Assembly (NCBI GenBank): GCA_032718475.1
Contig: JAUCBJ010007519.1
Span: 1 to 61,916, forward strand
From: Nemertoderma westbladi
Lineage: Eukaryota; Animalia; Xenacoelomorpha
DNA: 61,916 nt
Direction of reading: 5' to 3'
In this document: piece after piece, positions 3,531-50,354 of the stretch
Numbering within the stretch: the first letter of the stretch is position 1
Layout of the letters: each line of letters starts with the position of its first letter
Program-made: the position numbers and the translations under genes
The notes under the pieces: generated by a model
Databases searched by the model: none
What the model was told of the DNA's origin: nothing
What the model saw: only the letters and a program-made list of their open reading frames with translations

Positions 3531-3790
3531 AGTAGGTTGATTACCTTCCACCAACCTTCTCTGCATGGCTAGCCATTGATTGATTACCGTCCGCCGACCT
3601 TGTCTGTCTGCATGGCTAGCCGTTGGTTGATTACCTTCCACCAACCTTGTCTGCATGTCTAGCCGTTGGTTGACTACCTTCCACCAACCTTGTCTGCATG
3701 TCTAGCCGTTGATTGATTACCTTCCGCCTACCTTGTCTGCATGGCTAGCCGTTGGTTGAATACCTTCTACCAACATTGTCTGCATGGCTA
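3531..3790. repeat. 43-bp satellite, block 1
   Basis: Consensus gctagccgttggttgattaccttccaccaaccttgtctgcatg. Confidence 0.95.
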
Positions 3791-5196
3791 CTACTACTAC
3801 TACTAGGATCGGCATGCTGCATTGCAGCTGCATTTTTAAGAATGCTGTGCCGGCTTGTCAACAAAATTGCACCGCCACAACTCCCTATCACCCATGACAT
3901 TTGCTAGATCATCCGCATCTTTAAGGCCAGTGTCCTTTAAGATGCGTCTCAAGAAAGTCATGGGCTGTCCACCATGCTTATTCACTCCATGAGGCTGCCA
4001 AAGTACAAGATTATGCACTGGCTGGTCCTCACGGCGAAAGCAATGTCCTGCAAAGCGGAGGCGATTTTGTTCTAGTGACAAGCTTGGGGGAACCAATGAG
4101 ACACCTCCAATGTTATATAGTGTCTGGTTGGAGATGTGTGCATTGTACTTGACACAATGTACCCGGCGTAGCATTCTTGTGAATGTGCCATCCAGAGATT
4201 TGGTGTCCTCAGCAGTTAGAGCCCAGCATGGACTCCCGTAGAGGAGTACTGGAACTACTGCTGCTCTAAATAATCGGACCTTAAGTTTCCGATTAATTCT
4301 AGGTGACTTCCAAATCCTGGAAAGCCTATTCAAGGCTGCCCATGCCTTTCCCTTACGTATTCGAAGGTCCTCACCTGACTTCCGGATCCATGATCCCAGG
4401 TAACAGAAGTCGTCCACATGCTCAAGCATACCATCCTTTGAGCTTATGCTCATCCGATCAGAGACTTGCTGAGGACTTTCAAAGTTAACTGTCAGAATTT
4501 TGGTCTTTCTGGAGTTAATAAAAAGACCAACACTAGAAGCAGCATGTTCTAATGAGCTGAGGAGCCGCTGGGCTCCCTCTAATGATTCTGAGAGTACTCC
4601 TAAGTCATCAGCAAAGTCTAGATCAGTTAGGTACTTGGCAGGATTTCCTCGACTTCTGGAGCCAGTAGGTGGAGTTATCATCACCCCATCATCATTATGA
4701 TGATCTAAGGACATGCGTAGAACATAGTCAACCACAATAATGAACAAGAATGGTGCAAGTGTGTCTCCTTGGAGGACGCCCCATAACACTTCAAATGGTT
4801 CTGTGTCACCGTCAACAGTAGACACAAATGTTGTCGAACCATCGTATACTGATCTGATTGCTGCAATAATTTCATCAGGAATCCCATATAATGAAAGTAT
4901 GCTGAACATACGTGAGCGAGAGACTGAATCAAAGGCCTTGAAGAAGTCAACAAAGATAACAGCCAGATGCCTGTCTTTCTTTTTTGATAACTCTTCAATT
5001 ATCCTTCTAAGTGCCAAAATGGGCTCCATGGTCCCACGACCTTTACGGAACCCATTCTGATTTCCACGTAGCAGTCTCTCAATGGGATCCCTGATGCGAT
5101 TTAATAGAATTCTATTGTATAGTTTTGCAGCAATCGAGATCAATGAGATTCCCCGAAAAGAACCATAGAGTGTTAGGTTGCCCTTCTTGGGAACTG
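3791..5196 (-). mobile_element. 5'-truncated RTE-clade non-LTR retrotransposon with (TAG)n 3' tail and 9-bp target-site duplication
   Basis: gcatggcta at 3782-3790 and 5197-5205; (cta)5 at 3791-3805; empty site caacattgtctgcatggctagctattgg seen in other satellite copies (e.g. ~5451). Confidence 0.88.
3836..5196 (-). CDS. Reverse transcriptase (RTE clade), N-terminally truncated, reading frame intact
   Basis: PKKG, RGISL, QNGFR, DFFKAFDSV, GVLQGDTLAPFLF, FADD, FCYLGS and LLYG motifs. The ORF-track ATG at 5200 comes from the target duplication. Confidence 0.92.
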
Positions 5197-6632
5197 GCAT
5201 GGCTAGCTATTGGTTGATTACCTTCCACCAACCTTGTCTGCATGGCTAGCCGTTGGTTGATTACCTTCCGCCGACCTTGTCTGCATGGCTAGCCGTTGGT
5301 TGATTACCTTCCGCCGACCTTGTCTGCATAGCTAGCCATTATTGGTTGATAACCTTCCACCAACCTTGTCTGCTTGGCTAGCCGTTGGTTGATTACCTTC
5401 CGCCGACCTTGTTTGTCCGCAAGGCTAGCCGTTGGTTGAATACCTTCTACCAACATTGTCTGCATGGCTAGCTATTGGTTGATTACCTTCCACCAACCTT
5501 GTCTGCATGGCTAGCCGTTGGTTGATTACCTTCCGCCGACCTTGTCTGCATGGCTAGCCGTTGGTTGATTACCTTCCGCCGACCTTGTCTGCATGGCTAG
5601 CCATTATTGGTTGATAACCTTCCACCAACCTTGTCTGCTTGGCTAGCCGTTGGTTGATTACCTTCCGCCGACCTTGTTTGTCCGCAAGGCTAGCCATTGG
5701 TTGAATACCTTCTACCAACATTGTCTGCATGGCTAGCTATTGGTTGATTACCTTCCACCAACCTTGTCTGCATGTCTAGACGTTGGTTGATTACCTTCCA
5801 CCAACCTTGTCTGCATGTCTAGACGTTGGTTGATTACCTTCCGTTGACCTTGTCTGCATGGCTAGCCGTTGGTTGATTACCTTCCGCTAACCTTGTCTGC
5901 ATGGCTAGCCATTGGTTGATTACCTTCCGCCGAGATTGTTTGTCTGTATGGGTAGCCGTTGGTTGATTACCTCCCCCCAACCTTGTCCACATGTCTAGCT
6001 GTTTTTTGATTACCTTCCGCCGACCTTGTCTGCATGACTACCCGTTGGTTGATTACCTTCCGCCAAACTTGTCTGCATGGCTAGCCGTTGGTTAACTACC
6101 TTCAGCTAACCTTGTCTGCATAGCTAGCTGTTGGTTGATTACCTTCCGCCCATCTTGTATGTCTGCATGGCTAGCCGTTGGTTGATTACCTCCCACCAAC
6201 CTTGTCCGCATGGCTAGCCGTTGGTTGATTACCTTCCACCAACCTTGTCTGCATTTCTGGCCGTTGGTTGATTACCTTCCACCAACCTTGTCTGCATGGC
6301 TAGCCGTTGGTTGAGTACCTTCCGCCGACCTTGTCTGCAGGACTAGCCGTTGGTTGATTACCTTCCACCAACCTTGTCTGCATGGCTAGCTGTTGGTTGA
6401 TTACCTTCCACTAACCTTGTCTGCATGGCTAGCCGTTGGTTGATTACCTCCCACCAACCTTGTCTGCATGTCTAGCCGTTGGTTGATTACCTTCCGCCAC
6501 CTTGTCTGCATGACTACCCGTTGGTTGATTACCTTCCACCACCTTGTCTGCATGGCTAGCCATTGGTTGATTAACTTCCGCTAACCTTGTCTGCATGGCT
6601 AGCCGTTGGTTGATTACCTTCTGCCGACCTTG
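5197..6632. repeat. 43-bp satellite, block 2
   Basis: Same consensus, with 47-bp variants (+tgtt/tgtc). Confidence 0.95.
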
Positions 6633-7822
6633 TGTAAAAGCTTTTGCGTAATTAGCCGGTTATTTTCCCGTAAAGTACTCTGTAGTTGGTTTACCAGGCA
6701 TAAAAAGGCCGTGTCCTTACTGTACTGGTGTTTTAGAGGACATAAAAGCCATTTCTTCTGTATGTGTACTTTAAAGGACATAATCCGTAATTTCGTGACG
6801 CAATAGCTGGATACTCTTGAAAACAGTGTCGCTACCATGACGACGGCTAACAGCTGATATTGCCACGTAGAACATTTCTTTGTTTCTTTGTTCTCTCTTA
6901 GTTCAGTCGGCCAATCAGAGCATTTTTATGGCTCTTGTACAGAAATTTCCGAGAAATCACGTAATGCATTATGGGCAGTGTTATCATTCAGTCCTGAGCC
7001 AAGGAAGAACGGCTTTGGAGTATTTTGTGCTTTTCTGCTTTAGCCTTACACTAGTAGGCTTAATTATAAGGACATATATCCGTTATCTGGGTAACTCAAT
7101 GTTATCTGCACTGGTTAACACTGGTTAACTGGCCCATACTGTGCAACTTAACTTAACATTACTGCTTTGCTGTCGGTTATTCATTATATTTGTTGATGAA
7201 TTATTATATTTGGAATAACGAGAAATAACCCCGAAACCCAATATTCTTGATATACCGAAGGTAAGAGAGAAAGGTTACATATAACGATTGCGACTTATGT
7301 TAAAGTGGTTTGAAGTGAATCTAATGTTATTTGATAGACCCTACATGAGTCGGTCTGTGTTCCTTTTATATGTGACTAAAATCAGTGAAGATCGGCAGAT
7401 TAGTGTGCAGTATTGTGCAGCATTGTGTATGAGTGAGACTGATAACGAAGCATTTCCTAAAGAATGCGCCATATATGTGAATTGTAACTAAGCCATATCG
7501 TTGTGAGTAGTTTAAGTCATAACTCTGTTTATATAGATAGAGCGCCACGTCCTAAAGGAACTGTTAATATTCCCCGAAGGTGAATAATATTGTCAGAGAT
7601 TATATAATACTGTCAGTCGAATAATACATTAGGCTTACATAGCAATACGATTAAGCCCTCGAAGTCAATCTCCCGGGTATATCCAACGGGTGAATGATCG
7701 CGCACAGATTGGTTTCAACTAGTGTAGTGAATCAAATACTTGTTAGAGGCTAAAGCGATTTATTATCTAGAAGACATCCTAATTTGGCGGGTTAAACTGC
7801 CAAGGGTCTGAAAGCGCGAACA
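6633..7822 (+). repeat. 5' LTR of element A
   Basis: tgtaaaagctttt...aagcgcgaaca; about 7 substitutions vs the 3' LTR counted by eye. Confidence 0.95.
7072..7086 (+). promoter_or_regulatory. LTR-internal motif complementary to the PBS position (candidate self-primer), element A
   Basis: acatatatccgttat is the exact reverse complement of 7823-7837. Confidence 0.75.
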
Positions 7823-7837
7823 ATAACGGATATATGT
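7823..7837 (+). promoter_or_regulatory. Non-tRNA primer-binding site candidate, element A
   Basis: ataacggatatatgt starts at the first base after the LTR; no TGG; 15/15 complementary to 7072-7086. Confidence 0.75.
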
Positions 7838-8149
7838 AGTCTGTATTGCAGTGTAGGCATTAAATACAGTTTAATATTGTTCTGGTAAGAACAATAACGG
7901 ATATAGCTTCTGTATTGCAGTAGGCAATAAAGCGGAAGTACCGGCAACCGGTACCCAGTAGGCCTGACTACCTAACCACCCGGACCGGTACCTACAGCTG
8001 TACAGGTACAGCAGTATTATTCGATTTTGATAATTATATACCGGTAGGCCTTAATAATTAATCAGGGAGGGCCCGCCCTGGTTTTTTATTGAGATTTTTA
8101 CTTATTTCTGTCAAGTTTTATTTGTTTGTAGGCCAGTATTGAACAGAAG

Positions 8150-8725
8150 GCGTGTAAGCCTGATCAGATTGTACAGACAATTTGTAGGCTGAGCTGTTGT
8201 CTGATTGTTGTTAAGTCTGAACGGATTGCAGTGTGTGTAGATCACCTGTCCGATAAAGAATGGTTAGGAAGTAGGGGCAGCCAATGCTGTAAGGTAAACC
8301 CCCAACTAAAGAATAAGTCGTACTACTGGGTTAGAACGCATACTACCTAATCATTTCGGAGTCTGCATGTCCTGTAGTTTATTTAGGCTTGAGAGTAGTC
8401 TGCCATCGTTTAGTCTGTACTTTGTTTGTGTAAGTCTGTACTGGTAGCGTATAATATTTATTTAGATAATTTGTAGGCTCGATAGTTGTCTGGCTGTTAT
8501 TAGGTCTGAACGGATTGCAGTGTGTGTAGAGCCTCTGTCCGATAAAGAACGGTTAGGAAGTAGGGGCAGCCAATGCTGTAAGGTAAACCCCCAACTAAAG
8601 AATAAGTCGTACTACTGGGTTAGAACGCATACTACCTAATCATTTCGGAGTCTGCATGTCCTGTAGTTTATTTAGGCTTGATAGTAGTCTGTCAGTGTTT
8701 GGTCTGCATTTTGTTTGAGTGGTTT
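8150..8725. repeat. ~288-bp direct duplication in the 5' leader of A (homologous ~287-bp duplication in B at ~41050-41640)
   Basis: gaacggattgcagtgtgtgtag at ~8220 and ~8508; identical ~150-bp cores. Confidence 0.85.
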
Positions 8726-10066
8726 GTACGCGTAGCGTAATATTTATTATTCAGAGTTTATGCGATTATTCGCAACATTCATTCCCCAAGTTTGTTCCTA
8801 CAATAATTGTGTTTGTTATACATACCGCTATAGTTAAATTAACCCCGGTACTACACGGGCTGCTTGGTGTAGGTAAAGACTGGTGATTTTGTGCACCGGT
8901 CACTCCAGCAGATGCCGTGGTTCTTTTAGCTGTTCAAGTATATTTAACTACTGATTATATGTTGTACAAGTACTCGTACCTAATTTAGGGTTTAGTGTAC
9001 AGTGCTTTCCGAGAGTAATTAGTGTAGGCATTATATTTGTGTTGTAAAGTGGTTGATAGGCACTTTCGATTAGCTCTATTAACTTCTAGGTAGGAACACT
9101 CCGTGATACATAACGTAGTACCTATAGCGATACGGCTATAGGTCGTCAGGCGGTGGTATTTTCCTATCTAGACAACGCAGTGTATTTACTACTACTTATT
9201 ATTTTCAAATACCGTAGTACCCTGTCCGTTGTAATAACCAGATTCTAACCCTTTGTTAGGCTGGTTTGTAGACTTCTTGTAAAATTACCCTGAAAATTCG
9301 TATTTTGTGTTTTTGTAAATTTTTGTGTTTATTTAGATATTGTAATCTCACCCGAATTGTACGTAATTTGTAGTATTAAGTAACTTAGGTAAATTAGAAT
9401 TATTTGTTTTAGTGTCCTATAAGTAACACTTCACTGAAAGCGCACCGCTTTGTGTAGTGATTACTCCCCAGAAATAATAACATTTATTTCAAACATTGAC
9501 AAAACCCATTAAAACGGGTATATATATATTATAAATCAAATCTAACGATTTATAAATAGTAGGCCTACCATCCAACCATTGGGTCTCAATATCAGTTGGA
9601 TTACTGCTCAAATAACGGTAATAAAGTAAGTAAAGTAACCAAGTAACCCCAAAATTCAGAAATTCAATTATTTAAAATAATTGATATACCGGTATTTAAG
9701 ATAGGCCTATTATCTTTATTTCTATAAATTTAGGCTGAAATTATACCGGTACTTTATAATTAATTCTAGTCCAGAATTATAATTATATATACTACAAAAC
9801 TGTAAGCTGTATACCGGTATTCCAGATAGGCCTATTATATATTTATATATATTTGTGCTAAAATTATACCGGTATTCTGTGATAAACCTAGTCTGTAATA
9901 ATAGTTATATATACTATAAGCATACCGGTATTCTAATATATTATATATATCACGCTGCACTGAGTAGCAGTACCGGTAATTAATTACTAGGCTAGCAGTT
10001 AATACTGAGTTACTAGACTTGCTCAGACTGTAATACAGCAGTAGACATTCAACTGTACACATAAAC

Positions 10067-11509
10067 ATGTCTGATACTAAGCAGAACCTGTCAGACAGTT
10101 TATTAGATGTAACTATCTGCGACTCAGATAGAGACGTAGAACCGTCTAGTCGTAAGTTCAGTTCACCTCCCACTGTGAGGAAGGTCATCCCTCCAGTAGT
10201 AATAACGGAACCTAGGCTGGTCCAACATCGTAGGTCTATCATAGGCACTCGAGCTCAGGTAAAGCGGGACCAAGAAGCAGCGGAACAGCAACAACCCGCG
10301 AGCCAAGAACTCATTTCTCAGCGGCCCTACAGCTCCAGTAGTGAAGATACTGTAGAACTGACACCCGAGCGCGGAGCAAGGATGATGGATGCGGTTTATT
10401 CGGATCCCCTTCTCATCCTTCCTGCAGCCGTACTCACTAGGTTATTGATTGCGGTGGAAGAACACCAGACCGATTGGGCGAGAAGTCAGCGATCAACTAG
10501 AGATAGTTATGCGGGATACACGAGGGAAGAACTGAAGTCTATTGTCGAGTCGCAATGGAACTTCCCCGGACCCGGACTCCCGTTTGATTTATCAGAAGCT
10601 GCCTGGGAAGACATACACCGGATGGGAGTAGCCAAGGAAACCATCGATCCAGCTGTGTGGAAGAGGTCCGCAGCCGGATACGCACAGGGATTCTTCAGCT
10701 CTATGGAGCGAGTAGAAAAACAACTGTTACAACAACCTCAAGGACCTCAAGAGCAGGGACAACTGCTTTATCAAGTTAGAGAAAGAATTCTGCGAATCAG
10801 GCTAATATTATCAGCCTTTGAAGAGGCTTCTAAAAGAAGACAAGACACGTCGTTGCAAGTTGCCGTAAAGACTTGGTTTCAACGGGTGAGTCGCCAGGTT
10901 CAAGGAACAGCTCAGTGGAAAGCTCAGCTGGAGGAGCGCTCAACCCATGGAGAATCAACAGACGCTACTTTTTCCCAAGTGGAAAGTGAAGCGACGGCAG
11001 AGAAACCGCATAAGAGGGATGCCATTGACATCTATCTGTCAGACTATCAACGTTTTTTAGGTGATGACGAGTTGAGGAGAAGGTTAGAGGGACTTAGCCC
11101 TAATAGTGAAGGAACCAAGCTTGTGTTGGATGCCATCGATGTGGAAATGAGGGCTGCGAACCAGGCTAAATTTGATGAACAACTCCGCATCACACGAGTC
11201 CAGGAGGAGCAAGTCAAGAAAAAACGTATAGAAGACAGAAAGACAGCGGCAGTGGCAGCAGCAGTAGCAGCGGCAGAAGCAGAAAGAAAAGCGGCAGTGT
11301 CAGCGGCAGAGGCAGAAGCCGAAAGAAAGGCGGCAGAGGCAGAGGCAGAAGCCGAAAGAAAGGCGGCAGAGGCAGAGGCAGAAGCTGAAAGAAAGGTGGC
11401 AGCGGCAGCGGCCGAAGCAGAAAGAAAGGCGGCTGTAACAGCGGATATTGCCCCAAGAAGTTTAATCCAACTGACATCGCTTCCAGAGGAGCAACTCCTC
11501 AAGAACTGA
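10067..11509 (+). CDS. N-terminal part of Gag of element A (480 aa; last ~20 aa read out of frame across a deletion junction)
   Basis: Colinear and highly similar to residues 1-~450 of the 1554-aa ORF of B; ends in an AEAERKAA coiled-coil repeat; lacks capsid domain and zinc knuckles. Confidence 0.85.
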   Translation: MSDTKQNLSDSLLDVTICDSDRDVEPSSRKFSSPPTVRKVIPPVVITEPRLVQHRRSIIGTRAQVKRDQEAAEQQQPASQELISQRPYSSSSEDTVELTPERGARMMDAVYSDPLLILPAAVLTRLLIAVEEHQTDWARSQRSTRDSYAGYTREELKSIVESQWNFPGPGLPFDLSEAAWEDIHRMGVAKETIDPAVWKRSAAGYAQGFFSSMERVEKQLLQQPQGPQEQGQLLYQVRERILRIRLILSAFEEASKRRQDTSLQVAVKTWFQRVSRQVQGTAQWKAQLEERSTHGESTDATFSQVESEATAEKPHKRDAIDIYLSDYQRFLGDDELRRRLEGLSPNSEGTKLVLDAIDVEMRAANQAKFDEQLRITRVQEEQVKKKRIEDRKTAAVAAAVAAAEAERKAAVSAAEAEAERKAAEAEAEAERKAAEAEAEAERKVAAAAAEAERKAAVTADIAPRSLIQLTSLPEEQLLKN

Positions 11510-12069
11510 CAGATACTACAGACCGGTTAGGTGAACCCGACTTCCTGAGTAAGGAGGATGAATGGCCTCCCCATCTTACTCCGACTGAGATTAGACCAGC
11601 CAAGGGAGCGGAGAAAGTCAAACCTAAAACCCGGACGGGTGGATCGGAGTTATTTGAACCCGGGATAGATCTGTCGGTATTACATATTGCCAGGGACGAC
11701 GCCGTGGATCTGGACCTCCCCACCGCGAGTGGATCCTTCATGAAGATCAGAGAGAGCGATTGGAGCTCTGGAACATCAGACGTCTCGCAGGGACTCTCAC
11801 CTCTCCTGCAGGGAGCGACGGACCACTATAGCTCCTGGAATCGGCTTTGTAAGGCCGTCGTGTACCTAGAGCGATGTTTCTATCGTCACTATTCCAGGAC
11901 GAAGAGGAAACCTGGAATTGTATTCGGGATGCAGCGACTCAATCACCCAGTCGGTCGTTTGTGTTTACCGGAAGGGAATGGAGGACTCTCCGGAAACTGT
12001 GGAAGGCAAGATTTTCTTCCCACGACCACCTCCCTAATCCTTCAAACATCTAGGGACTCCATAACGTAA
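11443..12069 (+). pseudogene. BEL/Pao pol remnant: RNase H C-terminal tail, connector and extreme integrase C-terminus
   Basis: Open frame GYCPKKFNPTDIASRGATPQEL..GEPDFLSKEDEWP..YSSWNRLCKAVVYLERCF..NHPVGRLCLPE matches BEL NPADxxSRG, GPxFL..WP, FSSWxxL and RPxxKLC motifs; no DDE core. Confidence 0.8.
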
Positions 12070-13725
12070 CAACATATGGAGTGGGTGTGTGACTCTATTA
12101 TTTTGTATTTGTTTTATTTTTATATTTATGTATGTATTATTATGTAATTTTATTATAATCGTTTTCTTTAATTTCATTTAGTAGAATGTTATTTTAGCGA
12201 TTATTTATTAGATTAGTGCAATATATATTCGCGTTTATTACTTAATTACGTATATATTATATTTAGTGCGACGGCGAGAAATAATTATTTTCCTCCTTCC
12301 TTACTGTCTGTATTACATTACAAATACGTAACTACAGTAAGATGACATACCCGTACTTATTAAAGTACAATAAAGCCACTACTATATTCAAGTATTATTG
12401 GTAGGCAGAGTATTAGGAATGCAAAGTTCAGATCCTCGTGTCTCGGCTAAACCAAGCTCTGGGTAGACCTTGGAAACGACTTGCCTCTTCACACTGACAT
12501 TGCTTCGTGCGATATTGCTCTCATACCATATATTAAATAATACATATAGTAGCGTGATGTCCCTCTAACAGTAGCGTGAAACGCAAATAAATCTGTTAAA
12601 CCTTTTGACCATCTGTAATTCTAGTCGATTAAGATATCGCGGCACCCACCGATATACTTGAAAGACAAATTCTAGAATCAGTGGTTAACGTCCCCAGACA
12701 AGTTCTGGAATAAATCGGTGCCCATCTCAAATATTAATTATTTAATATTTGCTAATCCAATAAATCAAAATCTGTAAAATTCAGATCCTTCAACAATTCT
12801 AGTCAATTAAGACATCGTAGCATTTACCGATATTCTTAAAAAGACAATTTTCATAGAATTAAGGATCTTGTGTCCCCAGACATGTTCTAGAATCAAAACA
12901 TGTCAATTTAATTATCAAATAATAAAATTTCAGGGAATAAATTTAAATTCATGCCTTTTAATGAATTTAATAAATTGCCTTTTTTACGCAATTTATAACA
13001 TTCCCAAAATTCCATTAATTAATAGATCAAGGGAGCGGAGATTTATCTTCTTATGCGTATGAGTGTGCGAAAGTCTCCCAAACATAGTCAATAGCCGATA
13101 AAATTCATAAAGCCATGTATAAAACAGGACATTGACCATTAAAGAATTACTATTAAATAACATCCCAGATCTGGATGCATTGGAATTACCCTAATTCTAC
13201 CGCTAGCTTTACATAATGTCACCATAGCAACAACCACGCTAGAATTAGAATTGAGTTAAAAGAACAATAGAAAGCTTGTCTCATTGAATAGCATAGGGAA
13301 TAAATAGCGCACTGCTAGTATCCAAGGATACATAATAATACAGTGACATTCTGGAAGGCATTGACTAACGGACAAATGGCCCGAGTGTGTGTAATTTGTG
13401 ACAAGTTGTGTGTGTGGTATTTGTGAGTTTATAGGCGAATGTTACTACTAAGGTGTGTTTACAGTAGCGAGTCGCAATTGTGAAAGTAACCCTAACTCTC
13501 CAGTAAGAACCTGAGGTGTATCTAAGCCTTTGGGACGGACAGTCGAGTGACTTGTGCCGGTTGTCGCTGTCGTTGTGCGGCTACGTCGTTGGCGAAAGTA
13601 CAGCGGCGACGACACATCGGCGCTGAGGATCTCGCACTGTCCGGGGGCTGATTGGGGTAGGCAGCGACGCTCGCTAGCCTAAATATAAACTCCTTACAAT
13701 ATGGATAAACTCATATATAGCAGAT

Positions 13726-15116
13726 ATGACGGAGTTGATAGAAGATGGTCTTGGTATCGGGGAGTGATATACTCTACTTTTACAGGCGTTTGTTGATAGC
13801 TTAATACGCGGCGACGTTAGTCCAACTGCTGCGGAGGACGATGGTCGTTATATCGAACCGCCAATGTCCCAAGAGCAGCTCACGCATGAGTTGGACTATA
13901 GAAAATTCGCTGCTCGATATACGCAGCGTAATGGTACGTATATGGGCTTCTTAACTACTGATCATCCTATCGATTTACACAATACGGACTATGTCGACTA
14001 TATATCCTGCCCAGTGGAGTCGGAACCATAAACTGAAATTCGAATGCGAAAATTCTATTCGAAATCGACTCGAAAGAAAAGACACTAAAGAAACAAATGG
14101 ACGCGGTAACTCCAACGTATATTTGGAATTTTTGATAGAAGCATTGTAACAACAAATAAATATCACCCGCGTTTCCCCTACCAGACGTGAGTCTTTGGTA
14201 TTATTACGATAAATGCCCTAGACCCAGCCAATAAACGGAAAGACATAAACATCCACGGAAACGTTGTTTTAAACACAGTTGTGCTCGTTATATTTACTGG
14301 AGTTTCGAGCGAAACTTGTTTGACGTATCACCTATGCTCACTCGGCTCGAACGATCCTGGAGTAAACCTACGATCAGAGTCCCGGAATACTCGGTCAAAC
14401 CTCCTCATTCCTTAGTTGGACCTCAGACCTGCGATCCTGGTGGTGTCGCGGATCCTCGCGGACTGTATTCACTGTTCAAAGATCTAGTGCTACCCTAACA
14501 ATTAATCGGTAACACTCCGACAGTGATTTCTAGCTAGCCGCCCATCTTACCTGGCCGGATTGTGACGCGGACACCTAATATCACTATCCAACCGTATGGT
14601 CGTCCCCGTTTAACGCGATACAACCCCTCATCAAGGTGAAGGAGAGCGTTGTACGAAGCGAGTTAAACGCTATTCTATAAAGATCAAAAAAGAAACCTGC
14701 GTTTGTTCAGATAAACGTAAGTTATAACAGTAAGTCCAATCGATAAACGAATTGGCCTTATCTCAATTCGATTGGGAAATCCAGAATCTCTAAGAAGTTA
14801 TCGAACTTGGACGATCCTATTCTCTGCGAGAGTTTTTGGATGAACGTATCCAGCTACGAGCGGAGGAAAATCAGCTCGAGGGGAAGCATATCGAAATGGC
14901 AGATACCTCGACCATAATCCTACACCTTCTGATGCAATCATATTGCACCCTTCGCCCAGGAGTTATAGCCTTCCTAGTAAAGTGGCTCGCCCCAAAGAGA
15001 AAAAGACTCTTGCTAGCCTCAAAAACTGCGTAAACGCCGTCTGCGTAAGAAAGACTAACTGTTTAGAGTATCTTTATATTTTAGAAACTGTGATTTGTTA
15101 TATTTTATAGACTTAA
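13726..15116 (+). pseudogene. Degenerate extra 3' ORF region of unknown function in A
   Basis: MTELIEDGLGIGE*YTLLLQAFVDSLIRG..IEPPMSQEQLTHELDYRKFAARYTQRNGTYMGFLTT and LLMQSYCTLRPGVIAFLVKWLAPKRK are conserved at peptide level in B. Confidence 0.55.
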
Positions 15117-15127
15117 ATCCCATTTTC

Positions 15128-15136
15128 TGGGAGCGG
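15128..15136 (+). promoter_or_regulatory. Polypurine-tract position of A
   Basis: tgggagcgg directly before the 3' LTR; identical in B (ccgctccca at 32061-32069). Confidence 0.65.
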
Positions 15137-16326
15137 TGTAAAAGCTTTTGCGTAATTAGCCGGTTATTTTCCCGTAAAGTACTCTGTAGTTGGTTTACCA
15201 GGCATAAAAAGGCCGTGTCCTTACTGTACTGGTGTTTTAGAGGACATAAAAGCCATTTCTTCTGTATGTGTACTTTAAAGGACATAATCCGTAATTTCGT
15301 GACGCAATAGCTGGATACTCTTGAAAACAGTGTCGCTACCATGACGATGGCTAACAGCTGATATTGCCACGTAGAACATTTCTTTGTTTCTTTGTTCTCT
15401 CTTAGTTCAGTCGGGCAATCAGAGCATTTTTATGGCTCTTGTACAGAAATTTCCGAGAAATCACGTAATGCATTATGGGCAGTGTTATCATTCAGTCCTG
15501 AGCCAAGGAAGAACGGCTTTGGAGTATTTTGTGCTTTTCTGCTTTAGCCTTACACTAGTAGGCTTAATTATAAGGACATTTATCCGTTATCTGGGTAACT
15601 CAATGTTATCTGCACTGGTTAACACTGGTTAACTGGCCCATACTGTGCAACTTAACTTAACATTACTGCTTTGCTGTCGGTTATTCATTATATTTGTTGA
15701 TGAATTATTATATTTGGAATAACGAGAAATAACCCCGAAACCCAATATTCTTGATATACCGAAGGTAAGAGAGAAAGGTTACATATAACGATTGCGACTT
15801 ATGTTAAAGTGGTTTGAAGTGAATCTAATGTTATTTGATAGACCCTACATGAGTCGGTCTGTGTTCCTTTTATATGTGACTTAAATCAGTGAAGATCGGC
15901 AGATTAGTGTGCAGTATTGTGCAGCATTGTGTATGAGTGAGACTGATAACGAAGCATTTCCTAAAGAATGCGCCATATATGTGAATTGTAACTAAGCCAT
16001 ATCGTTGTGAGTAGTTTAAGTCATAACTCTGTTTATATAGATAGAGCGCCACGTCCTAAAGGAACTGTTAATATTCCCCGAAGGTGAATAATATTGTCAG
16101 AGATTATATAATACTGTCAGTCGAATAATACATTAGGCTTACATAGCAATACGATTAAGCCCTCGAAGTCAATCTCCTGGGTATATCCAACGGGTGAATG
16201 ATCGCGCACAGATTGGTTTCAACTAGTGTAGTGAATCAAATACTTGTTAGAGGCTAAAGCGATTTATTATCTAGGAGACATCCTAATTTGGCGGGTTAAA
16301 CTGCCAAAGGTCTGAAAGCGCGAACA
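15137..16326 (+). repeat. 3' LTR of element A
   Basis: 1190-bp direct repeat of 6633-7822. Confidence 0.95.
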
Positions 16327-19300
16327 CCTTGTTTGTCTGCATGACTAGCTGTTGGTTGATTACCTCCCACCAACCTTGTCCGCATGGCAAGCCGTTGGTT
16401 GATTACCTTCCACCAACCTTGTCTGCATGTCTAGCCGTTGGTTGATTACTTTCCGCTGACCTTGTTTGTCTGCATGGCTAGCCGTTGGTTGATTACCTCC
16501 CACCAACCATGTCCACATGGCTAGCCGTTGGTTGATTACCTTCCACCAACCTTGTCTGTATGTCTAGCCATTGGTTGATTACCTTCCGCCAACCTTGTCT
16601 GCATGGCTAGCCGTTGGTTGATTACCTTCTGCCAACCTTGACTGCAGGACTAGCCGTTGGTTGATTACCTTCTGCCAACCTTGTCTCCATGTCTAGCCGT
16701 TGGTTGAATACCTTCCACCAACCTTGTCTGCATGGCTAGCCGTTGGTTGAGATTACCTTCCACCGACCTTGTCTGCATGGCTAGCCGTTGGTTGATTACC
16801 TTCTGCCGACCTTGTCTGCATGGCTAGCGGTTGGTTGATTACCTTCCGCTAACCTTGTCTGCATGGCTAGCCGTTGGTTGATTACCTTCCGCCGACATTG
16901 TTTGTCTGCATGGCTAGCCATTGGTTGATTACCTCCCCCCAACCTTGTCCACATGTCTAGCCGTTGGTTGATTACCTTCCGCCGACCTTGTCTGCATGAC
17001 TACCCATTGGTTGATTACCTTCCGCCAAACTTGTCTGCATGGCTAGCCGTTGGTTGATTACCTTCAGCTAACCTTGTCTGCATAGCTAGCTGTTGGTTGA
17101 TTACCTTCCGCCGACCTTGTTTGTCTGCATGGCTAGCCATTGGTTGATTACCTCCCACCAACCTTGTCCGCATGGCTAGCCGTTGGTTGATTACCTTCCA
17201 CCAACCTTGTCTGCATTTCTAGCCGTTGGTTGATTACCTTCCGCCAACCTTGTCTGCAGGAGTAGCCGTTGGTTGATTACCTTCCACCAACCTTGTCTGC
17301 ATGGCTAGCTGTTAGTTGATTACCTTCCACTAACCTTGTCTGCATGGCTAGCCGTTGGTTGATTACCTCCCACCACCCTTGTCTGTATGTCTAGCTGTTG
17401 GTTGATTACCTTCCGCTGCCTTGTCTGCATGACTACCCGTTGGTTGATTACCTTCCACCACCTTGTCTGCATGGCTAGCCGTTGGTTGATTACCTTCGGC
17501 TAACCTTGTCTGCATGGCTAGCCGTTGGTTGATTACCTTCCGTCGACCTTGTTTGTCTGCATGGCTAGCCTTTGGTTGATTACCTTCCCCCGACCTTGTC
17601 TGCATGGCTAGCCGTTGGTTGATTACCTCCCACCAACCTTGACCGCATGGCAAGCCGTTGGTTGATTACCTTCCACCAACCTTGTCTGCATGTATATATA
17701 GCCGTTGGTTGATTACCTTCCGCTGACCTTGTTTGTCTGCATGGCTAGCCGTTGGTTGATTACCTCCCACCAACCTTGTCCGCATGGCTAGCCGTTGGTT
17801 GATTACCTTCCACCAACCTTGCCTGCATGTCTAGCCGTTGATTGATTACCTTCCGCCAACCTTGTCTGCATGGCTAGCCGTTGGTTGAATACCTTCTGCC
17901 AACCTTGACTGCAGGACTAACCATTGGTTGATTACCTTCTGCCAACCTTGTCTGCATGTCTAGCCGTTGGTTGAATACCTTCCACCAACCTTGTCTGCAT
18001 GGCTAGCCGTTGGTTGATTAACTTCCACCGACCTTGTCTGCATGGCTAGCCGTTGGTTGATAACCTTCTGCCGACCTTGTCTGCATGGCTAGCGGTTGGT
18101 TGATTACCTTCCGCTAACCTTGTATGCATGGCTAGCCGTTGGTTGATTACCTTCTGCCAACCTTGACTGCATTGCTAGCCGTTGGTTGATTGCCTTCCCC
18201 CGACCTTGTCTGTCTGCATGGCTAGCCTTAGGTTGATTACCTTCCGCCGATCTTGTCTGTCTGCATGGCTAGCCGTTGGTTGATTACCTTCCACCAACCT
18301 TGTCTGCATGTCTAACTGTTGGTTGATTACCTTCCGCCGAACGTGTCTGCATGTCTAGCCATTGGTTGATTAGCTTCCACCAACCTTGTCTGCATGGCTA
18401 GCCGTTGGTTGAATACCTTCCACCAACCTTGTCTGCATGTCTAGTCGTTGGTTGATTACCTTCCGCTAACCTTGTCTGCATGGCTAGCCGTTGGTTGATT
18501 ACCTTCCGCTAACCTTCTCTGCATGGCTAGCCGTTGGTTGATTACCTCCCCCCAACCTTGTCTGTCTGCATTGCTAGCCTTAGGTTGATTACCTTCCGCC
18601 GATCTTGTCTGTCTGCATGACTAGCCGTTGGTTGATTACCTTCCACCAACCTAGTCTGCATGGCTAGCCGTTGGTTGATTACCTTCCGCTAACCTTGTCT
18701 GCATGGCTAGCCGTTGGTTGATTACCTTCCGCTAACCTTGTCTGCATGGCTAGCCGTTGGTTGATTACCTCCCCCCAACCTTGTCTGTATGTCTAGCCGT
18801 TGGTTGATTACCTTCCGCCGACCTTGTCTGCATGACTACCCGTTGGTTGATTACCTTCCGCCAAACTTGTCTGCATGGCTAGCCACCTTCAGCTAACCTT
18901 GTCTGCATAGCTAGCCGTTGGTTGATTACCTTCCGCCAACATTGTCTGCATGGCTAGCTATTGGTTGATTACCTTCCACCAACCTTGTCTGCATGTCTAG
19001 ACGTTGGTTGATTACCTTCCACCAACCTTGTCTGCATGTCTAGACGTTGGTTGATTACCTTCCGTTGACCTTGTCTGCATGGCTAGCCGTTGGATGATTA
19101 CATTCCGCTAACCTTGTCTGCATGGCTAGCCATTGGTTGATTACCTTCCGCCGAGATTGTTTGTCTGTATGGGTATCCGTTGGTTGATTACCTCCCCCTA
19201 ACCTTGTCCACATGTCTAGCTGTTTTTTGATTACCTTCCGCCGACCTTGTCTGCATGACTACCCGTTGGTTAATTACCTTCCGCCAAACTTGTCTGCATG

Positions 19301-22300
19301 GCTAGCCGTTGGTTGACTACCTTCAGCTAACCTTGTCTGCATAGCTAGCTGTTGGTTGATTACCTTCCGCCCACCTTGTATGTCTGCATGGCTAGCCGTT
19401 GGTTGATTACCTTCCACCAACCTTGTCTGCATTTCTGGCCGTTGGTTGATTACCTTCCACCAACCTTGTCTGCATGGCTAGCCGTTGGTTGAGTACCTTC
19501 CGCCGACCTTGTCTGCAGGACTAGCCGTTGGTTGATTACCTTCCACCAACCTTGTCTGCATGGCTAGCTGTTGGTTGATTACCTTCCACTAACCTTGTCT
19601 GCATGGCTAGCCGTTGGTTGATTACCTTCCGCCGACCTTGTTTGTCTGCATGGCTAGCCATTGGTTGATTACCTCCCACCAACCTTGTCCACATGGCTAG
19701 CGGTTGGTTGATTACCTTCTGCTAACCTTGTATGCATGGCTAGCCGTTGGTTGATTACTTTCCACCGACCTTGTCTGCATGGCTAGCCATTATTGGTTGA
19801 TAACCTTCCACCAACCTTGTCTGCTTGGCTAGCCGTTGGTTGATTACCTTCCGCCGACCTTGTTTGTCCGCAAGGCTAGCCGTTGGTTGAATACCTTCTA
19901 CCAACATTGTCTGCATGGCTAGCTATTGGTTGATTACCTTCCACCAACCTTGTCTGCATGTCTAGACGTTGGTTGATTACCTTCCACCAACCTTGTCTGC
20001 ATGTCTAGACGTTGGTTGATTACCTTCCGTTGACCTTGTCTGCATGGCTAGCCGTTGGTTGATTACCTTCCGCTAACCTTGTCTGCATGGCTAGCCATTG
20101 GTTGATTACCTTCCGCCGAGATTGTTTGTCTGTATGGGTAGCCGTTGGTTGATTACCTCCCCCCAACCTTGTCCACATGTCTAGCTGTTTTTTGATTACC
20201 TTCCGCCGACCTTGTCTGCATGACTACCCGTTGGTTGATTACCTTCCGCCAAACTTGTCTGCATGGCTAGCCGTTGGTTGACTACCTTCAGCTAACCTTG
20301 TCTGCATAGCTAGCTGTTGGTTGATTACCTTCCGCCCACCTTGTATGTCTGCATGGCTAGCCGTTGGTTGATTACCTCCCACCAACCTTGTCCGCATGGC
20401 TAGCCGTTGGTTGATTACCTTCCACCAACCTTGTCTGCATTTCTGGCCATTGGTTGATTACCTTCCACCAACCTTGTCTGCATGGCTAGCCGTTGGTTGA
20501 GTACCTTCCGCCGACCTTGTCTGCAGGACTAGCCGTTGGTTGATTACCTTCCACCAACCTTGTCTGCATGGCTAGCTGTTGGTTGATTACCTTCCACTAA
20601 CCTTGTCTGCATGGCTAGCCGTTGGTTGATTACCTCCCACCAACCTTGTCTGCATGTCTAGCCGTTGGTTGATTACCTTCCGCCACCTTGTCTGCATGAC
20701 TACCCGTTGGTTGATTACCTTCCGTTGACCTTGTCTGCATGGCTAGCCGTTGGTTGATTACCTTCCGCTAACCTTGTCTGCATGGCTAGCCATTGGTTGA
20801 TTACCTTCCGCCGAGATTGTTTGTCTGTATGGGTAGCCGTTGGTTGATTACCTCCCCCCAACCTTGTCCACATGTCTAGCTGTTTTTTGATTACCTTCCG
20901 CCGACCTTGTCTGCATGACTACCCGTTGGTTGATTACCTTCCGCCAAACTTGTCTGCATGGCTAGCCGTTGGTTGACTACCTTCAGCTAACCTTGTCTGC
21001 ATAGCTAGCTGTTGGTTGATTACCTTCCGCCCACCTTGTATGTCTGCATGGCTAGCCGTTGGTTGATTACCTCCCACCAACCTTGTCCGCATGGCTAGCC
21101 GTTGGTTGATTACCTTCCACCAACCTTGTCTGCATTTCTGGCCATTGGTTGATTACCTTCCACCAACCTTGTCTGCATGGCTAGCCGTTGGTTGAGTACC
21201 TTCCGCCGACCTTGTCTGCAGGACTAGCCGTTGGTTGATTACCTTCCACCAACCTTGTCTGCATGGCTAGCTGTTGGTTGATTACCTTCCACTAACCTTG
21301 TCTGCATGGCTAGCCGTTGGTTGATTACCTCCCACCAACCTTGTCTGCATGTCTAGCCGTTGGTTGATTACCTTCCGCCACCTTGTCTGCATGACTACCC
21401 GTTGGTTGATTACCTTCCACCACCTTGTCTGCATGGCTAGCCATTGGTTGATTAACTTCCGCTAACCTTGTCTGCATGGCTAGCCGTTGGTTGATTACCT
21501 TCTGCCGACCTTGTTTGTCTGCATGGCTAGCTGTTGGTTGATTACCTCCCACCAACCTTGTCCGCATGGCAAGCCGTTGGTTGATTATCTTCCACCAACC
21601 TTGTCTGCATGTCTAGCCGTTGGTTGATTACCTTCCGCTGACCTTGTTTGTCTGCATGGCTAGCCGTTGGTTGATTACCTCCCACCAACCATGTCCACAT
21701 GGCTAGCCGTTGGTTGATTACCTTCCACCAACCTTGTCTGCATGTCTAGCCATTGGTTGATTACCTTCCGCCAACCTTGTCTGCATGGCTAGCCGTTGGT
21801 TGATTACCTTCTGCCAACCTTGACTGCAGGACTAGCCGTTGGTTGATTACCTTCTGCCAACCTTGTCTGCATGTCTAGCCGTTGGTTGAATACCTTCCAC
21901 CAACCTTGTCTGCATGGCTAGCCGTTGGTTGAGATTACCTTCCACCGACCTTGTCTGCATGGCTAGCCGTTGGTTGATTACCTTCTGCCGACCTTGTCTG
22001 CATGGCTAGCGGTTGGTTGATTACCTTCCGCTAACCTTGTCTGCATGGCTAGCCGTTGGTTGATTACCTCCCCCCAACCTTGTCCACATGTCTAGCCGTT
22101 GGTTGATTACCTTCCGCCGACCTTGTCAGCATGACTACCCATTGGTTGATTACCTTCCGCCAAACTTGTCTGCATGGCTAGCCGTTGGTTGATTACCTTC
22201 AGCTAACCTTGTCTGCATAGCTAGCCGTTGGTTGATTACCTTCCGCCGACCTTGTTTGTCTGCATGGCTAGCCGTTGGTTGATTACCTCCCACCAACCTT

Positions 22301-39733: not shown

Positions 39734-41958
39734 GTTTAGTTATACAGTCGAATGTCTACTACTATAGTTTCAGTTAAAGCAAGTCTAGTAATTCAGTATG
39801 ACCGCAAGCCTAGCGATTTATTACCGGTACCGTTACTCAGTGGAACGTGATATATACAATATATTAGAATACCGGTATGCTTATAATATATAAGTATTAT
39901 TACAGACTAGATTTGTCACAGAGTACCGGTATATAATTTTAGCACAAATATATATATATATATAGTAGGCCTATAATGAATACCGGTATACAGCTTACAC
40001 TTATAGTATATAAGTATAATTCTGGATTAGAATTAATTACAGAGTACCGGTATGATTTCAGCTCAAATTTATAGAAATAAATATAATAAGCCTATGGTAA
40101 GTACCGGTATGTCAATTATTTTTAGAATAATTGAATTTCTGAATATTTTAGGGCTACTTGGTTACTTTAACTTACTTTGTTACCGTTATTTAAGCAGTAG
40201 TCCAACTGATAGTGAGACCTAGTTTTGTATGACAGGCCTACTATTTATAAATCGTTTGATTTGATTTATAATATTTATATACCCGTTTATATGGGTTTTG
40301 TCAATATTTGAAATAAATGTTATTATTTCTGGGGGTCACTACACAGAAGCTGAACGCCTCTCAGTGAAGTGCTATTTATTTGACACTAAAACTGATAATT
40401 CTAATTTACCTAAGTTACTTAATACTACAAATTACTTACGATACGGGTGAGATTAATTCTCTAATTAAACACAACAAAATATTACGTACGAATTTTTAGG
40501 GTAATTTTACAGGAAGTCTACAAACCAGCCTAACAAAGGGTTAGATTTCTGGTTATTATCAACAGACAGGGTACTACGGTATTTGAATAATAAGTAGTAG
40601 TAAATATATTGTACTGTCCAGATAGGAAAATACCACCGCCTGACGACCTATAACCGTATCGCTATAGGTACTACGTTATGTATCACGGATTGTTCCTACC
40701 CAGAAGCTAATAGAGCTAACGAATGTGCCTATCAACCACTTTACAACACAAATATACTGCCTACACTAATTACTTCGGAAGGCACTGTACACTAAACCCT
40801 AAATTAGGTACAAGTACCGGTATAACAAATAATCAGTAGTTAAATATACTTGAACAGTTAAAAGAACCACGGCATCTGCTGGAGTGACCGAAGCACAAAG
40901 TCGTCAGTCTTTACCTACGCCAAGCAGCCCTGATGTAGTACCGGGGTTAGTTTAACTATAACGGTATGTATAACAAGCACAATTACTGTAGGAATAAACT
41001 TGGGGACATGAATGTTGCGAATAATCGCATAAACTCTGAATAATAAATATTACGCTACCCGTACAGAATACTCAAACAAATACAAACCAAACGCTGGCGG
41101 ACTACTATCAAGCCTAAACAAACTACTGTATGTGCAGATTCTGAAACTGTTAGTTAGTATGCGTGCTAACACGGTAGTACGACTTACTCTTTAAGAGGGG
41201 ATTGACCTTACAGTGTTGACTGCCCCAACTTACTAACGGCGCTTGATCAGACCAACTCTACACACGCAGCAATCCCTTCAGACCCAAAAATAGCTAGACA
41301 ACAATCCAGCCTACAAAATATTTGAGTAATAACTATTACGGTACCTGAACAGACCACACAAACAAACACAGGCTAAAACACTGGCAGACTACGATCAAGC
41401 CTAAATAAACTACAGTATATGCAGACTCTGAAACTGTTAGTTAGTATGCGTGCTAACACGGTAGTACGACTTACTCTTTAAGAGGGGATTGACCTTACAG
41501 TGTTGACTGCCCCAACTTACTAACGGCACTTTATCAGACAAACTCTACACACGCCGTAATCTCTCCAAACCCAACCACAGTCAGACAGCAGCTCAGCCTA
41601 CAATTATCTGAACAATCTGAGCAGGGTCACACGCCTTCTGCTCAATATTAGCCTACTAGTAAATAAAACCAACAGAAATAAGTAGAATCTCAAATAAAAA
41701 ATCAGGGCGGCCGTTCCCTGATTAAGTACCAAGACCTACCGGTATACAACAATCAAAATCGAATAATACTAATGTACTTGTACAGCAGTACCGGTACCGG
41801 TGATGACAGTTAGGCCTACTGACCTACAAAGTACCGGTTCAGTTTTACCAGTCACTACGGTATTTTGCAACCCTATTGCCTACTGCAATAAGATTGTAAA
41901 CCGTTACTGTTCTCTAGAACAGTATTAAACTGTATTTAATACCTACACTGCAATAAGA

Positions 41959-41972
41959 ACATAAACTGTTAC
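41959..41972 (-). promoter_or_regulatory. Non-tRNA primer-binding site candidate, element B
   Basis: Sense gtaacagtttatgt directly after the LTR; 12 Watson-Crick plus 2 G-U pairs with LTR motif 42707-42720. Confidence 0.75.
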
Positions 41973-43216
41973 TGTTCGCGCTTTCGAAGACCTTTAGCAG
42001 TTTAACCTGCCAAAATTTATATGTCTTTTCGTTAATTAAAACCACTTTAGCATACGACAATAATTTATGCTAATACGCAAAACATTAGCCGAAGTCAGCC
42101 CATGCGCGATCATTCACCCGATGGATCTACACCCGGGAGACTGAATTCGGATGCTTGAATTGTATTATTACAGTGTAAGGTTGTAGTGTATACCTAATGT
42201 ATTATTCGATAGATCGTTAATAATTAATCTCTGACAGATATTATTGGCTTTCGGGAAATATTAACAGTTCCTTTAGGACGTGGCGCTTTACCTATTTAAA
42301 CAGAACTAAGACTTATACTAAACGCAACGATACTGCTGCTGATTAAAGTATAAAACGTATTCTTTAGGAAATACTTTGTTACCAATCACAATCATACACA
42401 CTATTCTGCCGACAGTCAGTATATTTGATCACACATAAAGAGAGCAGTAATTGACTCGCGTAGGGTCTGCTAAATAACATTGGATTCAATACACACCACA
42501 TTAATATAAATCGCAATTGTTATTTATAGCCGGTCTCTCTAACCTGTAGTGTTATCAAGAAAATTGGGAATTGGGTGATTTATCCGTATTATCCAAATAG
42601 CGATATTTCCATCAACAAATATTTACAATTAATAACTGACGGTAAAATAACAGTACAAACAATATGATTAATGAATTAGTGAGTGATTTAAGTCAGGATT
42701 GATGAGGTAACAGTTTATACTTTCGATAATTCAAGCAGTTTACGGTACAGCAGTATTGGTTACAAAATGCCGGTGTTTCTGGCTTAGACAGCAATAACAA
42801 CAAAAGTAACAACTCTCTCTCTCTCTCCAGTCAGCCGAAAAACACTCTCCCTATGATCCGCAGGAAAGCTACACGTCGACAGGAAAAACCGCCCTGATTG
42901 GCCCAAGCCACACAAAGAACCACGCTGCCAATGGCTGTTTCCATGTCAGCAACCAGCTGCTAGATGTCGTAATATGAATCATCACGGCTAAGCTGTGAAA
43001 GGTGGTTTGTGCATTACAAGTTTTTGTCTTACCATGTCCGCTAAAACACGTATATAGCAGAATGATTTTTATGTCCGTTAAAACACCTGTAAAGGTACCT
43101 TGCGGGCGAGGGGAATATATATACAGTTAGAAAACCCTTTTTAGAGTATTCCAGCGCCGGGGGGGGAACTGGCCAGCAAAGGCAAACGTATCAGTTATCC
43201 CACAAAAGCTTTTACA
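41973..43216 (-). repeat. 5' LTR of element B (1244 bp)
   Basis: Near-identical to 30788-32060 except two locally divergent patches. Confidence 0.93.
42707..42720 (-). promoter_or_regulatory. LTR-internal motif complementary to the PBS position (candidate self-primer), element B
   Basis: Sense gtataaactgttac; same motif at 31552-31565 in the other LTR. Confidence 0.75.
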
Positions 43217-45808: not shown

Positions 45809-45898
<90 letters not shown>

Positions 45899-48225: not shown

Positions 48226-48557
48226 TAGACTATGCCTGCCTATAGGCCTACTTCATATGTCTTACCTGCAGTACAGTACAGTTCTATATTATACAACTAC
48301 GGAACTGAACTAACTAATCTTACGGAATTACCGGTCTTTCTGAAGATTGGTAAGGTAAAGCTGCCGGGTTGGCCGTAGTCAGGTCGTATCGGTCTGTCGG
48401 TAGTCAGTAATGATTAAAAGATTAACAACTAACCACAGAACTAAGTTTACAGAGCTACGGGCAACCGGTACTGCAGTACTGCACTGATAGACTGAAAAGG
48501 GAATGACAATTTGCTGCACTGCACTGAGACAATATTTTAAATTTCCCTCCAAAATGA

Positions 48558-49732: not shown

Positions 49733-50100
49733 TCCTATATGGAATATTGTCAAAAAGCGCGCCACACGGGCTGACGGGTTCTGGTTAAACGAAAAGTGCG
49801 CCAGCCATGACATTCATTGCGCGCCAACCATTGACAGATTGACCATGAATTTTGCAATTATTGTAATCATTTACCAGTTTATCTGTTTATACTGCAGTAC
49901 CTAGACCTACTCCTACAGTATTTCAGTATTTTAACATGGAAATGCGAGCGTAGCGAGCAAGAAAATTTTGCAGAAATGCTGAAATGTTAAGATTAATACT
50001 GTAATATTCAGATAGTAGGTCAGCCGACTGTTTTCAAATACAGATGTGATTAAATTGCGAGCGTAGCAAGCAAGAAAATTTTAACATTTTTGGTAGGTCA
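49733..50100. mobile_element. Terminal fragment of the same family as the 51203-52140 insertion, inverted
   Basis: cctatatggaatattgtcaaaaagcgcgccacacg..ctggttaaacgaaaa is the inverted homologue of ~52070-52140. Confidence 0.65.
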
Positions 50101-50354
50101 AACTTCTGAACGTATAGTCAAAGAATATTGCGATGTTCAATTGCTGAATTGTACTGGCAGACCGGCGGCACTGGGACTGGGCACTGGGGGAGGACAGGAG
50201 GAGAGGACAGGAGGAAGAATGCCAGTTAGTTTAAATGCCTGGTACGATTTACGATTAGCAGAGATTTGGCGGATGTCATACTGCAGTACTGTCTCCTGTC
50301 ATCTGCAGCCGTCTTTCAGTGGTGGATAAGACAGTAAGACACGGTCTCGGTCCG

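Follow-up and report, generated by a model that had tools for sequence, protein, structure and literature searches.

Candidate self-priming from the LTR in BEL/Pao retrotransposons of Nemertoderma westbladi

The ICTV profile of the Belpaoviridae gives an 18-nt primer-binding site (PBS) for tRNA-Arg or -Gly and describes the family as replicating by tRNA priming (PMC8742986), as the original prediction for this locus had also stated. The element Achilles has a PBS for tRNA-Tyr in the accessible part of its description (PMC4580426). A contig of Nemertoderma westbladi (GCA_032718475.1, JAUCBJ010007519.1), analysed over its whole length of 61,916 nt and referred to here as the window, holds two BEL/Pao elements, A and B, in which no TGG is found within 28 nt after either 5′ LTR. 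This absence had been noted in the original prediction. The proposal is that the element RNA primes itself, through a stretch of the LTR that is complementary to the PBS.

Elements A and B and their primer-binding sites

Element A spans 6633-16326 on the plus strand and element B spans 43216-30788 on the minus strand (Table 1). The LTR pair of A differs at 7 of 1190 positions. The LTRs of B are 93% identical with clustered differences and no target site duplication (TSD) is present, so B is probably a recombinant of two insertions. A has TG...CA LTRs, a TSD and a polypurine tract (PPT), and B has LTRs and a PPT, all of which are structural traits of BEL/Pao. In the B open reading frame (ORF), DUF1759 was matched above the cut-off (E 3e-13) and a BEL/Pao polyprotein profile matched B at 1e-73. 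A word-based protein search returned 37 matches, all of which carry BEL/Pao Pfam families. Judged by a Ty3/gypsy-type Gag/Pol criterion, the element proteins are of the BEL/Pao type instead. Downstream of the protease, the B ORF holds a short piece that derives from after the RNase H region. Reverse transcriptase (RT) and integrase were not detected in A or B, and the gag core and protease were likewise undetected in A. On their proteins, A and B are filed as non-autonomous BEL/Pao elements of an isolated family. The Gag-protease of B shares about 30% identity with the top hits among 150 listed HMMER matches, and in a Gag-protease tree its branch is 2.99 long, lies in no starred set and is unplaced.

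Table 1. Positions of the LTRs, putative priming sequences and coding regions of elements A and B in the window
Feature	Position	Strand	Remarks
A: 5′ LTR, TG...CA, 1190 nt	6633..7822	+	self-comparison of window
A: 3′ LTR	15137..16326	+	self-comparison; motif copy 15576-15590
A: TSD, CCTTG, 5 nt	6628..6632, second copy 16327-16331	+	within 43-bp satellite
A: PPT	15129..15136	+	B tract identical
A: Gag ORF, N-terminal part	10034..11509	+	
CCAAT-box-like word	6909..6918	+	common to A and B, 160-180 nt upstream of motif
A: candidate self-primer motif in 5′ LTR	7072..7086	+	3′ end pairs with first base after LTR
Splice-donor-like site in LTR	7258..7268	+	candidate; GT at 7261, B counterpart at 42543
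A: PBS	7823..7837	+	no TGG; 15 Watson-Crick pairs with 7072-7086
A: predicted leader hairpin	7875..7896	+	arm 7875-7882 with 7889-7896; compensatory pair change in B
A: second tandem LTR-end/PBS-like unit	7889..7905	+	12 nt complementary to motif
B: 5′ LTR, 1244 nt	43216-41973	-	
B: candidate self-primer motif	42707..42721	-	
B: PBS	41958..41972	-	no TGG; 12 Watson-Crick pairs, 15 with G-U
B: hairpin arm and second PBS-like unit	41896..41924	-	
B: ORF, 1556 aa	35069..39739	-	DUF1759 gag, three Cys/His knuckles, aspartic protease motif
B: 3′ LTR	32060-30788	-	motif copy 31566-31552, intact

The original prediction held that the PBS of each element pairs with its own LTR. In A the exact complementarity is borne out over its full length from the first base past the LTR. 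In B, 41972-41961 pairs with 42718-42707 as had been noted, but the helix continues to 15 pairs, one more than claimed, through two G-U pairs and one A-U pair (42721 with 41958). Both helices begin at the first base after the LTR, the register that had been predicted, and the distance from motif to LTR end is indeed 736 nt in A and 734 nt in B. The claim that the motif changes to match the PBS was also upheld, as crosswise pairing of the A LTR with the B site, or the reverse, reaches only 5. The next-best match to the PBS within each LTR is 5-6 nt. From the dinucleotide content of the LTRs, the expected chance counts are 3.0e-6 for A and 2.8e-4 for B. Among 7289 internal start positions of A, the 15-nt match arises from position 1 alone, and the 12-nt match of B is found at 3 of 9887, position 1 included. 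A published sequence criterion for self-priming requires at least 10 nt of the LTR to be complementary to sequence that begins 0-5 nt past the 5′ LTR (PMC6317226, accessible part); the values here are 15 and 12 nt at offset 0. The motif is kept in both LTRs of B, and the 3′ LTR copy in A has one mismatch to the PBS (15580, T for A), which leaves 10 contiguous pairs.

When the leaders of A and B are aligned, the LTR end and 7844-7888 are nearly identical and the PBS is the most divergent part. Such divergence amid conserved flanks is the opposite of what would be expected if a conserved tRNA kept the site constant. A BLAST comparison of A with B gives no alignment over the LTR region surrounding the motif. 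The original caveat that the motif contains a TATA-like word holds for B; in A the word lies just upstream of the motif, so it is not conserved within it.

The leader carries further structure. The second LTR-end/PBS-like unit follows at a spacing of 71 nt in A and 65 nt in B, and the hairpin arm between the two PBS units shows a further compensatory change between the elements. Between A and B, both tandem units (7818-7925) change in concert. After each PBS unit comes a conserved pyrimidine-rich stretch with CAG at its end (7844-7851 and 7913-7920; B 41955 and 41890), and together with the donor-like site at 7261 these stretches could delimit an intron whose removal would take the PBS out of the mRNA. 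AATAAA is absent from both window LTRs, so R cannot be drawn. ARAGORN found no tRNA genes in the window. A tandem duplication of about 285 bp is present in the long leader of both elements (8179-8717 in A, 41037-41603 in B). A small Cys-rich ORF near the B 3′ LTR (32703-33029, minus strand) has a weak zinc-knuckle match below the cut-off (E 0.003), and the short frames neighbouring it are partly common to A.

Several candidate features of A and B were tried and set aside. A splice-built primer is not needed in either, as the contiguous match is longer than any junction. The primer end as a splice donor is excluded, the next base being C in A, B5 and B3. Extended pairing upstream of the motif gave inconsistent results against shuffles (n=300; A 4, B5 53, B3 149) and is not claimed for the A/B family. 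Self-cleavage by a ribozyme was dropped, as an Rfam search over 6500-16400 returned one weak match far below the cut-off and no ribozyme. The differences between the B5 and B3 LTRs, most before LTR position 544 and 3 after it, might have marked a strand transfer; this idea was given up because near-identity extends to positions 97-357 too.

The family was sampled further in assembled contigs of four runs. Part of the stretch is present in six of the seven listed runs, none of them on record as RNA; X5 may be RNA. Variants of at least 4% in runs X1 and X3 are absent over 7800-7834 and many over 7835-7844, although divergent B-type pieces were possibly not aligned there. The held PBS core is thus 12 nt (7823-7834). 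Loose ends of contigs include sites of the B type and leaders with one or with several units; at an X3 loose end of two contigs the PBS has A at the position equivalent to 7828. In one X3 contig (a joint) the motif has T at the position equivalent to 7081. Motif T and PBS A would form a third matching state, read from different contigs and unphased, in which the match ends at 11 nt. No TGG follows the LTR end in the 19 loose ends shown (of 32). The number of PBS units is one, two or, probably, three. The sequence right after the motif is hypervariable, with joints from 7087. None of the 14 joints listed is of the GT-AG type, and contigs cannot show absence. The A/B family is abundant in these DNA contigs, and A is a young copy on its 7 LTR differences. 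A conserved LTR word of the family had no matches in metagenome and viral contigs, and a protein query found no relatives in viral contigs.

A 43-bp satellite occupies 3535-3790, 5197-6633 and 16333-30787, its largest array counting 333 copies. An RT ORF (3836-5206, minus strand), element A and the 3′ end of B lie in or at the satellite. A single 325-aa short-chain dehydrogenase ORF with no apparent intron (1356-2333; adh_short, E 3e-52) adjoins a 56-bp tandem array at 1-933. The region 49734-52695 has inverted repeats nested within one another, with tandem units of 49 bp and 42 bp, and is possibly a foldback-type element. Tandem arrays of 315 bp and 154 bp, another RT ORF (RVT_1, E 2e-31) and an ORF of 308 aa with no Pfam family above the cut-off lie in the regions 44619-45811, 55930-57346, 57882-59180 and 47326-48252.

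Leader-LTR complementarity in BEL/Pao relatives

Relatives were fetched through an alignment of 23 full-length matches, giving 67 metagenome loci (the best 80 of 617 being kept) and 24 from prokaryote genome bins. In 18 of these 91 loci the 3′ end is marked by the presence of two LTR copies, and a self-complementary leader/LTR site of 10-15 nt is found in 14 of the 18. It is contiguous in three and lies across a canonical GT-AG junction in the LTR in eleven; as these eleven sites need the junction, the pairing would take place at the RNA level. In 13 of the self-complementary loci the match is 10-15 nt at a leader offset of 0-4, with a score reached by none of 150 random leaders for each. Cross-family maxima of the leader-LTR match are 7-10. 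One locus (L091) has a 12-nt junction match with its LTR end set from another (L018), and another (L078) matches its own 3′ LTR over 11 nt and its 5′ LTR over 8. Once near-identical loci are grouped, the self-complementary loci amount to about nine families. Three compensatory pair differences at the junction separate L071 from L074.

Four of the 18 loci (L082, L043, L014 and L026) have no 10-nt match. L082 is of an insect type with TGG. L043 matches over 7 nt and has TGG at +2, so that in both of these loci TGG lies within 2 nt of the apparent LTR end. The match is 6 nt in L014 and 9 nt, in an A-run, in L026; L043, L014 and L026 have no clean CA end. A blind scan, with end rules learned from the first set, covered the 41 of the remaining 73 loci with at least 350 nt upstream and was positive in 13 of them, against 4 of 820 shuffles.

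The PBS starts with purine-T in all 14 tabulated sites. Beyond this start, 9 of 11 positions carry 2-4 different letters among the 14 elements, and in no case does the pairing end more than 4 nt from the LTR edge. Ten of 13 relatives have a polyadenylation signal 1-98 nt downstream of the motif; in L071 and L074 it follows the motif directly. Beyond a bulge of 2-3 nt, 8 of 12 relatives have another short helix. The shuffle test of this extension (n=300) gave values of 8 or less in only 3 of the 12 and was mixed for the window elements.

In a quick RT-RNase H tree of 44 rows, built from loci with no named reference sequence, all self-complementary loci fall in one clade (SH-aLRT 98) together with L014, L026 and L043, and L082 lies outside. 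This clade is presumably Sinbad-like. A marine range is given for Sinbad in the accessible part of its source (PMC8220671). A and B have in common with the clade the purine-T start of the PBS and an offset of 0, as in L078 and L086. Contiguous primers (L009, L016, L068) and intron-split primers (L006, L008, L018, L025, L038, L071, L074, L078, L086) are mixed within the clade, which suggests loss or gain of an intron in the LTR. The 24 BEL/Pao loci L068-L091 come from records labelled bacterial or archaeal and are likely host DNA in bins. Among them, L082, which has two LTRs and is of the TGG type, lies inside a Wolbachia chromosome record of 1.4 Mb.

Models of priming

Taking all its variants together, self-priming is very probably the best reading of A and B. 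The original prediction of tRNA-independent self-priming in BEL/Pao gains from the pairing geometry, the compensatory changes, the third matching state and about nine distant families; the strict model of a Tf1-like primer and start is not established. Somewhat better than even is the chance that the 5′ LTR copy of the motif acts by folding onto the PBS of the same RNA. In this proposal, a 5′ LTR stretch of 12-15 nt would fold onto the PBS and a cut right after the motif would free a 3′-OH, from which minus-strand DNA could start. Transcription would begin at or upstream of 7072-7074, placing the motif in R. By analogy with Tf1, RNase H of an autonomous partner may cut the RNA duplex after its A-pyrimidine end, and Gag may chaperone the long-range helix. 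The motif would be restored from the 3′ LTR copy after strand transfer. Plus-strand copying of the primer could rewrite the PBS, and such copying of primer into cDNA would offer a route by which PBS and motif stay matched.

The cut primer piece may be longer than its paired part. For the intron-bearing relatives, the sequences rule out a primer made of the first 11 nt as in Tf1. Their primer runs across a splice junction and pairing often resumes past a short bulge, giving a paired strand longer than a 5′-terminal 11-mer. Since an exon of only 3-9 nt is unlikely, the junction-type primer is probably longer than its paired part.

Chance, or a one-off inverted duplication without function, is very improbable as a source of these matches. 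The window LTRs are AT-rich (38% GC) and the window holds two full copies, both of which would ease a fortuitous match. Against this stand the low expected counts for A and B, at the same position with different letters, the recurrence in about nine further families and the blind scan of relatives. A host RNA, such as a tRNA half or other fragment, could instead prime, with the motif-PBS helix purely structural, perhaps keeping the site or a polyadenylation signal masked up to packaging. The tRNA-primed description of the family by the ICTV (PMC8742986), the half-tRNA primers of Ty1/copia lineages (PMC6317226, accessible part) and the other covarying structure in the leader all speak for such a role. 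It is nonetheless improbable, as the PBS is more variable than its flanks between A and B, its letters vary at 9 of 11 positions among the 14 elements, and the pairing never stops more than 4 nt from the LTR edge, with no TGG.

The source of an element-derived primer is the closer question. If transcription started downstream of the motif, the motif would lie in U3, and the 3′ region of the RNA would pair with the PBS and be cut there, end to end. The presence of the motif in both LTRs is compatible with this, and the position of the polyadenylation signal downstream of the motif in 10 of 13 relatives would place the 3′ copy, and hence both copies, in the RNA. The TATA-like word within the B motif and the failure of the long 5′ loop to close in predicted folds of B point the same way. 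The TATA-like word is not conserved in A, however, and the CCAAT word would better fit transcription that begins upstream of the motif. Splicing of the 3′ copy in intron-bearing relatives would also tend to erase the intron in the progeny, yet 11 loci keep it. Finally, the 5′ copy in A is perfect and the 3′ copy is not, but this is one of only 7 LTR differences. Priming by the 3′ copy is accordingly rated unlikely. Less likely again, and below even the host-RNA primer, is a separate short RNA derived from the element (an LTR-only transcript, either spliced or ended prematurely, or one from the partner element) that anneals in trans. This would suit the polyadenylation signal directly after the motif in L071 and L074, the abundance of the A/B family in DNA contigs and the poor folding of B in cis. 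Each PBS, however, matches its own LTR and not that of its relative, for which action in cis is the simplest account.

For the 5′ copy as the primer source count the shared CCAAT word, the shared donor-like site (7261/42543) and the lack of a conserved TATA word, and the persistence of introns in relatives would fit splicing of the cap-proximal copy only. Against it are the B helix, which lies outside the predicted fold of the unspliced RNA, the absence of AATAAA from the window LTRs, the 3′ motif mismatch in A, the unphased third state with its 11-nt match, the unplaced B protein, and the four of 18 relatives with no 10-nt match. The folding predictions depend on the RNA modelled. The A helix has a predicted probability of 0.0-1.0 according to the RNA ends chosen, and in RNA starting at 7072-7074 the second PBS-like unit is predicted to compete for the motif. 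In unspliced B RNA the probability is 0.00-0.01 and forcing the helix costs 1.4-6.8 kcal/mol; in one spliced model it rises to as much as 0.47.

A wider reading is offered tentatively, at somewhat under even confidence. A large part of BEL/Pao, including the A/B family, would have dropped tRNA priming for an internal primer from its own RNA, which in many lineages the spliceosome assembles from two LTR exons. The contiguous A/B form would descend by intron loss. This route would be distinct from the first-11-bases primer of Tf1 and would make host splicing a switch for reverse transcription. The predicted independent origin stands in part: judging by phylogeny, self-priming in BEL/Pao likely arose separately from that in Tf1/sushi, but such an origin is not peculiar to the A/B family, and B is unplaced in the clade.

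Comparison with known systems

No report of self-priming in BEL/Pao was found in titles and abstracts of the open literature; supplements, Repbase, GyDB and subscription papers may mention it. Terms for PBS, tRNA and priming had no matches in the main text of three BEL/Pao surveys (PMC3118150, PMC554778, PMC6238403), and the accessible parts of four further papers (PMC3601003, PMC13524379, PMC5445492, PMC5443660) draw no link between BEL/Pao and self-priming. If the self-priming reading is true, the mechanism would extend to all three LTR superfamilies and to an animal clade that is widespread, and would have arisen repeatedly or be older than assumed. The elements would be freed from tRNA supply and from tRNA-fragment defence, and it would be explained why PBS-based annotation misses them. 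The splice-junction forms should then prime only from spliced RNA.

As far as the accessible descriptions of the Belpaoviridae and Achilles go, A and B resemble them in the TG...CA LTRs, the 5-nt TSD (in A), the PPT, the DUF1759 gag, the three Cys/His knuckles and the protease. They differ in having no PBS for a tRNA 3′ end, and in a Gag-protease as distant from its best listed matches as given above. The fungal GalEa copia elements have a conserved hairpin site in place of a PBS (PMC5445492, accessible part), and are similar in that the tRNA PBS is lost and a self-complementary sequence stands instead. The GalEa hairpin, however, is local, conserved and palindromic and has no LTR complement in the text available, whereas the partner in A and B lies in the LTR and the letters vary.

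Self-priming has been described for Tf1/sushi and, in the accessible part of the source, predicted in plants for Tcn1 (gypsy) and TAR/Houba/Osr-1 (copia) lineages (PMC6317226), for which the same sequence criterion holds as for A and B. Unlike these, A and B belong to a third superfamily with animal hosts, and a splice-built primer goes unmentioned in that part of the source.

Self-primed reverse transcription is best known from Tf1 and Tf2 of Schizosaccharomyces pombe and Tj1 of S. japonicus, in the Tf1/sushi group of Ty3/gypsy (PMC7175516, PMC5341516, PMC4600332, PMC11042837, as far as accessible). According to the available text, Tf1 RNA anneals to the PBS through its first 11 bases and is cleaved by RNase H between bases 11 and 12 (PMC7175516), and the primer is found copied into DNA at about half of the cDNA ends (PMC11042837). 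Self-priming is proven experimentally for Tf1 and is predicted from sequence for A and B. From what these sources give, A and B are alike in having no tRNA site and a PBS complementary to an LTR stretch from the LTR edge, over 11-15 pairs. The first five letters of the A PBS, ATAAC, are also those of the Tf1 PBS in the accessible text (PMC11042837), which may be coincidence. A and B differ in being BEL/Pao and not gypsy, with a loop of about 735 nt, no RT and a duplicated PBS unit. Their BEL/Pao relatives depart further from Tf1, in that the putative primer would be built by splicing and extends past a bulge.
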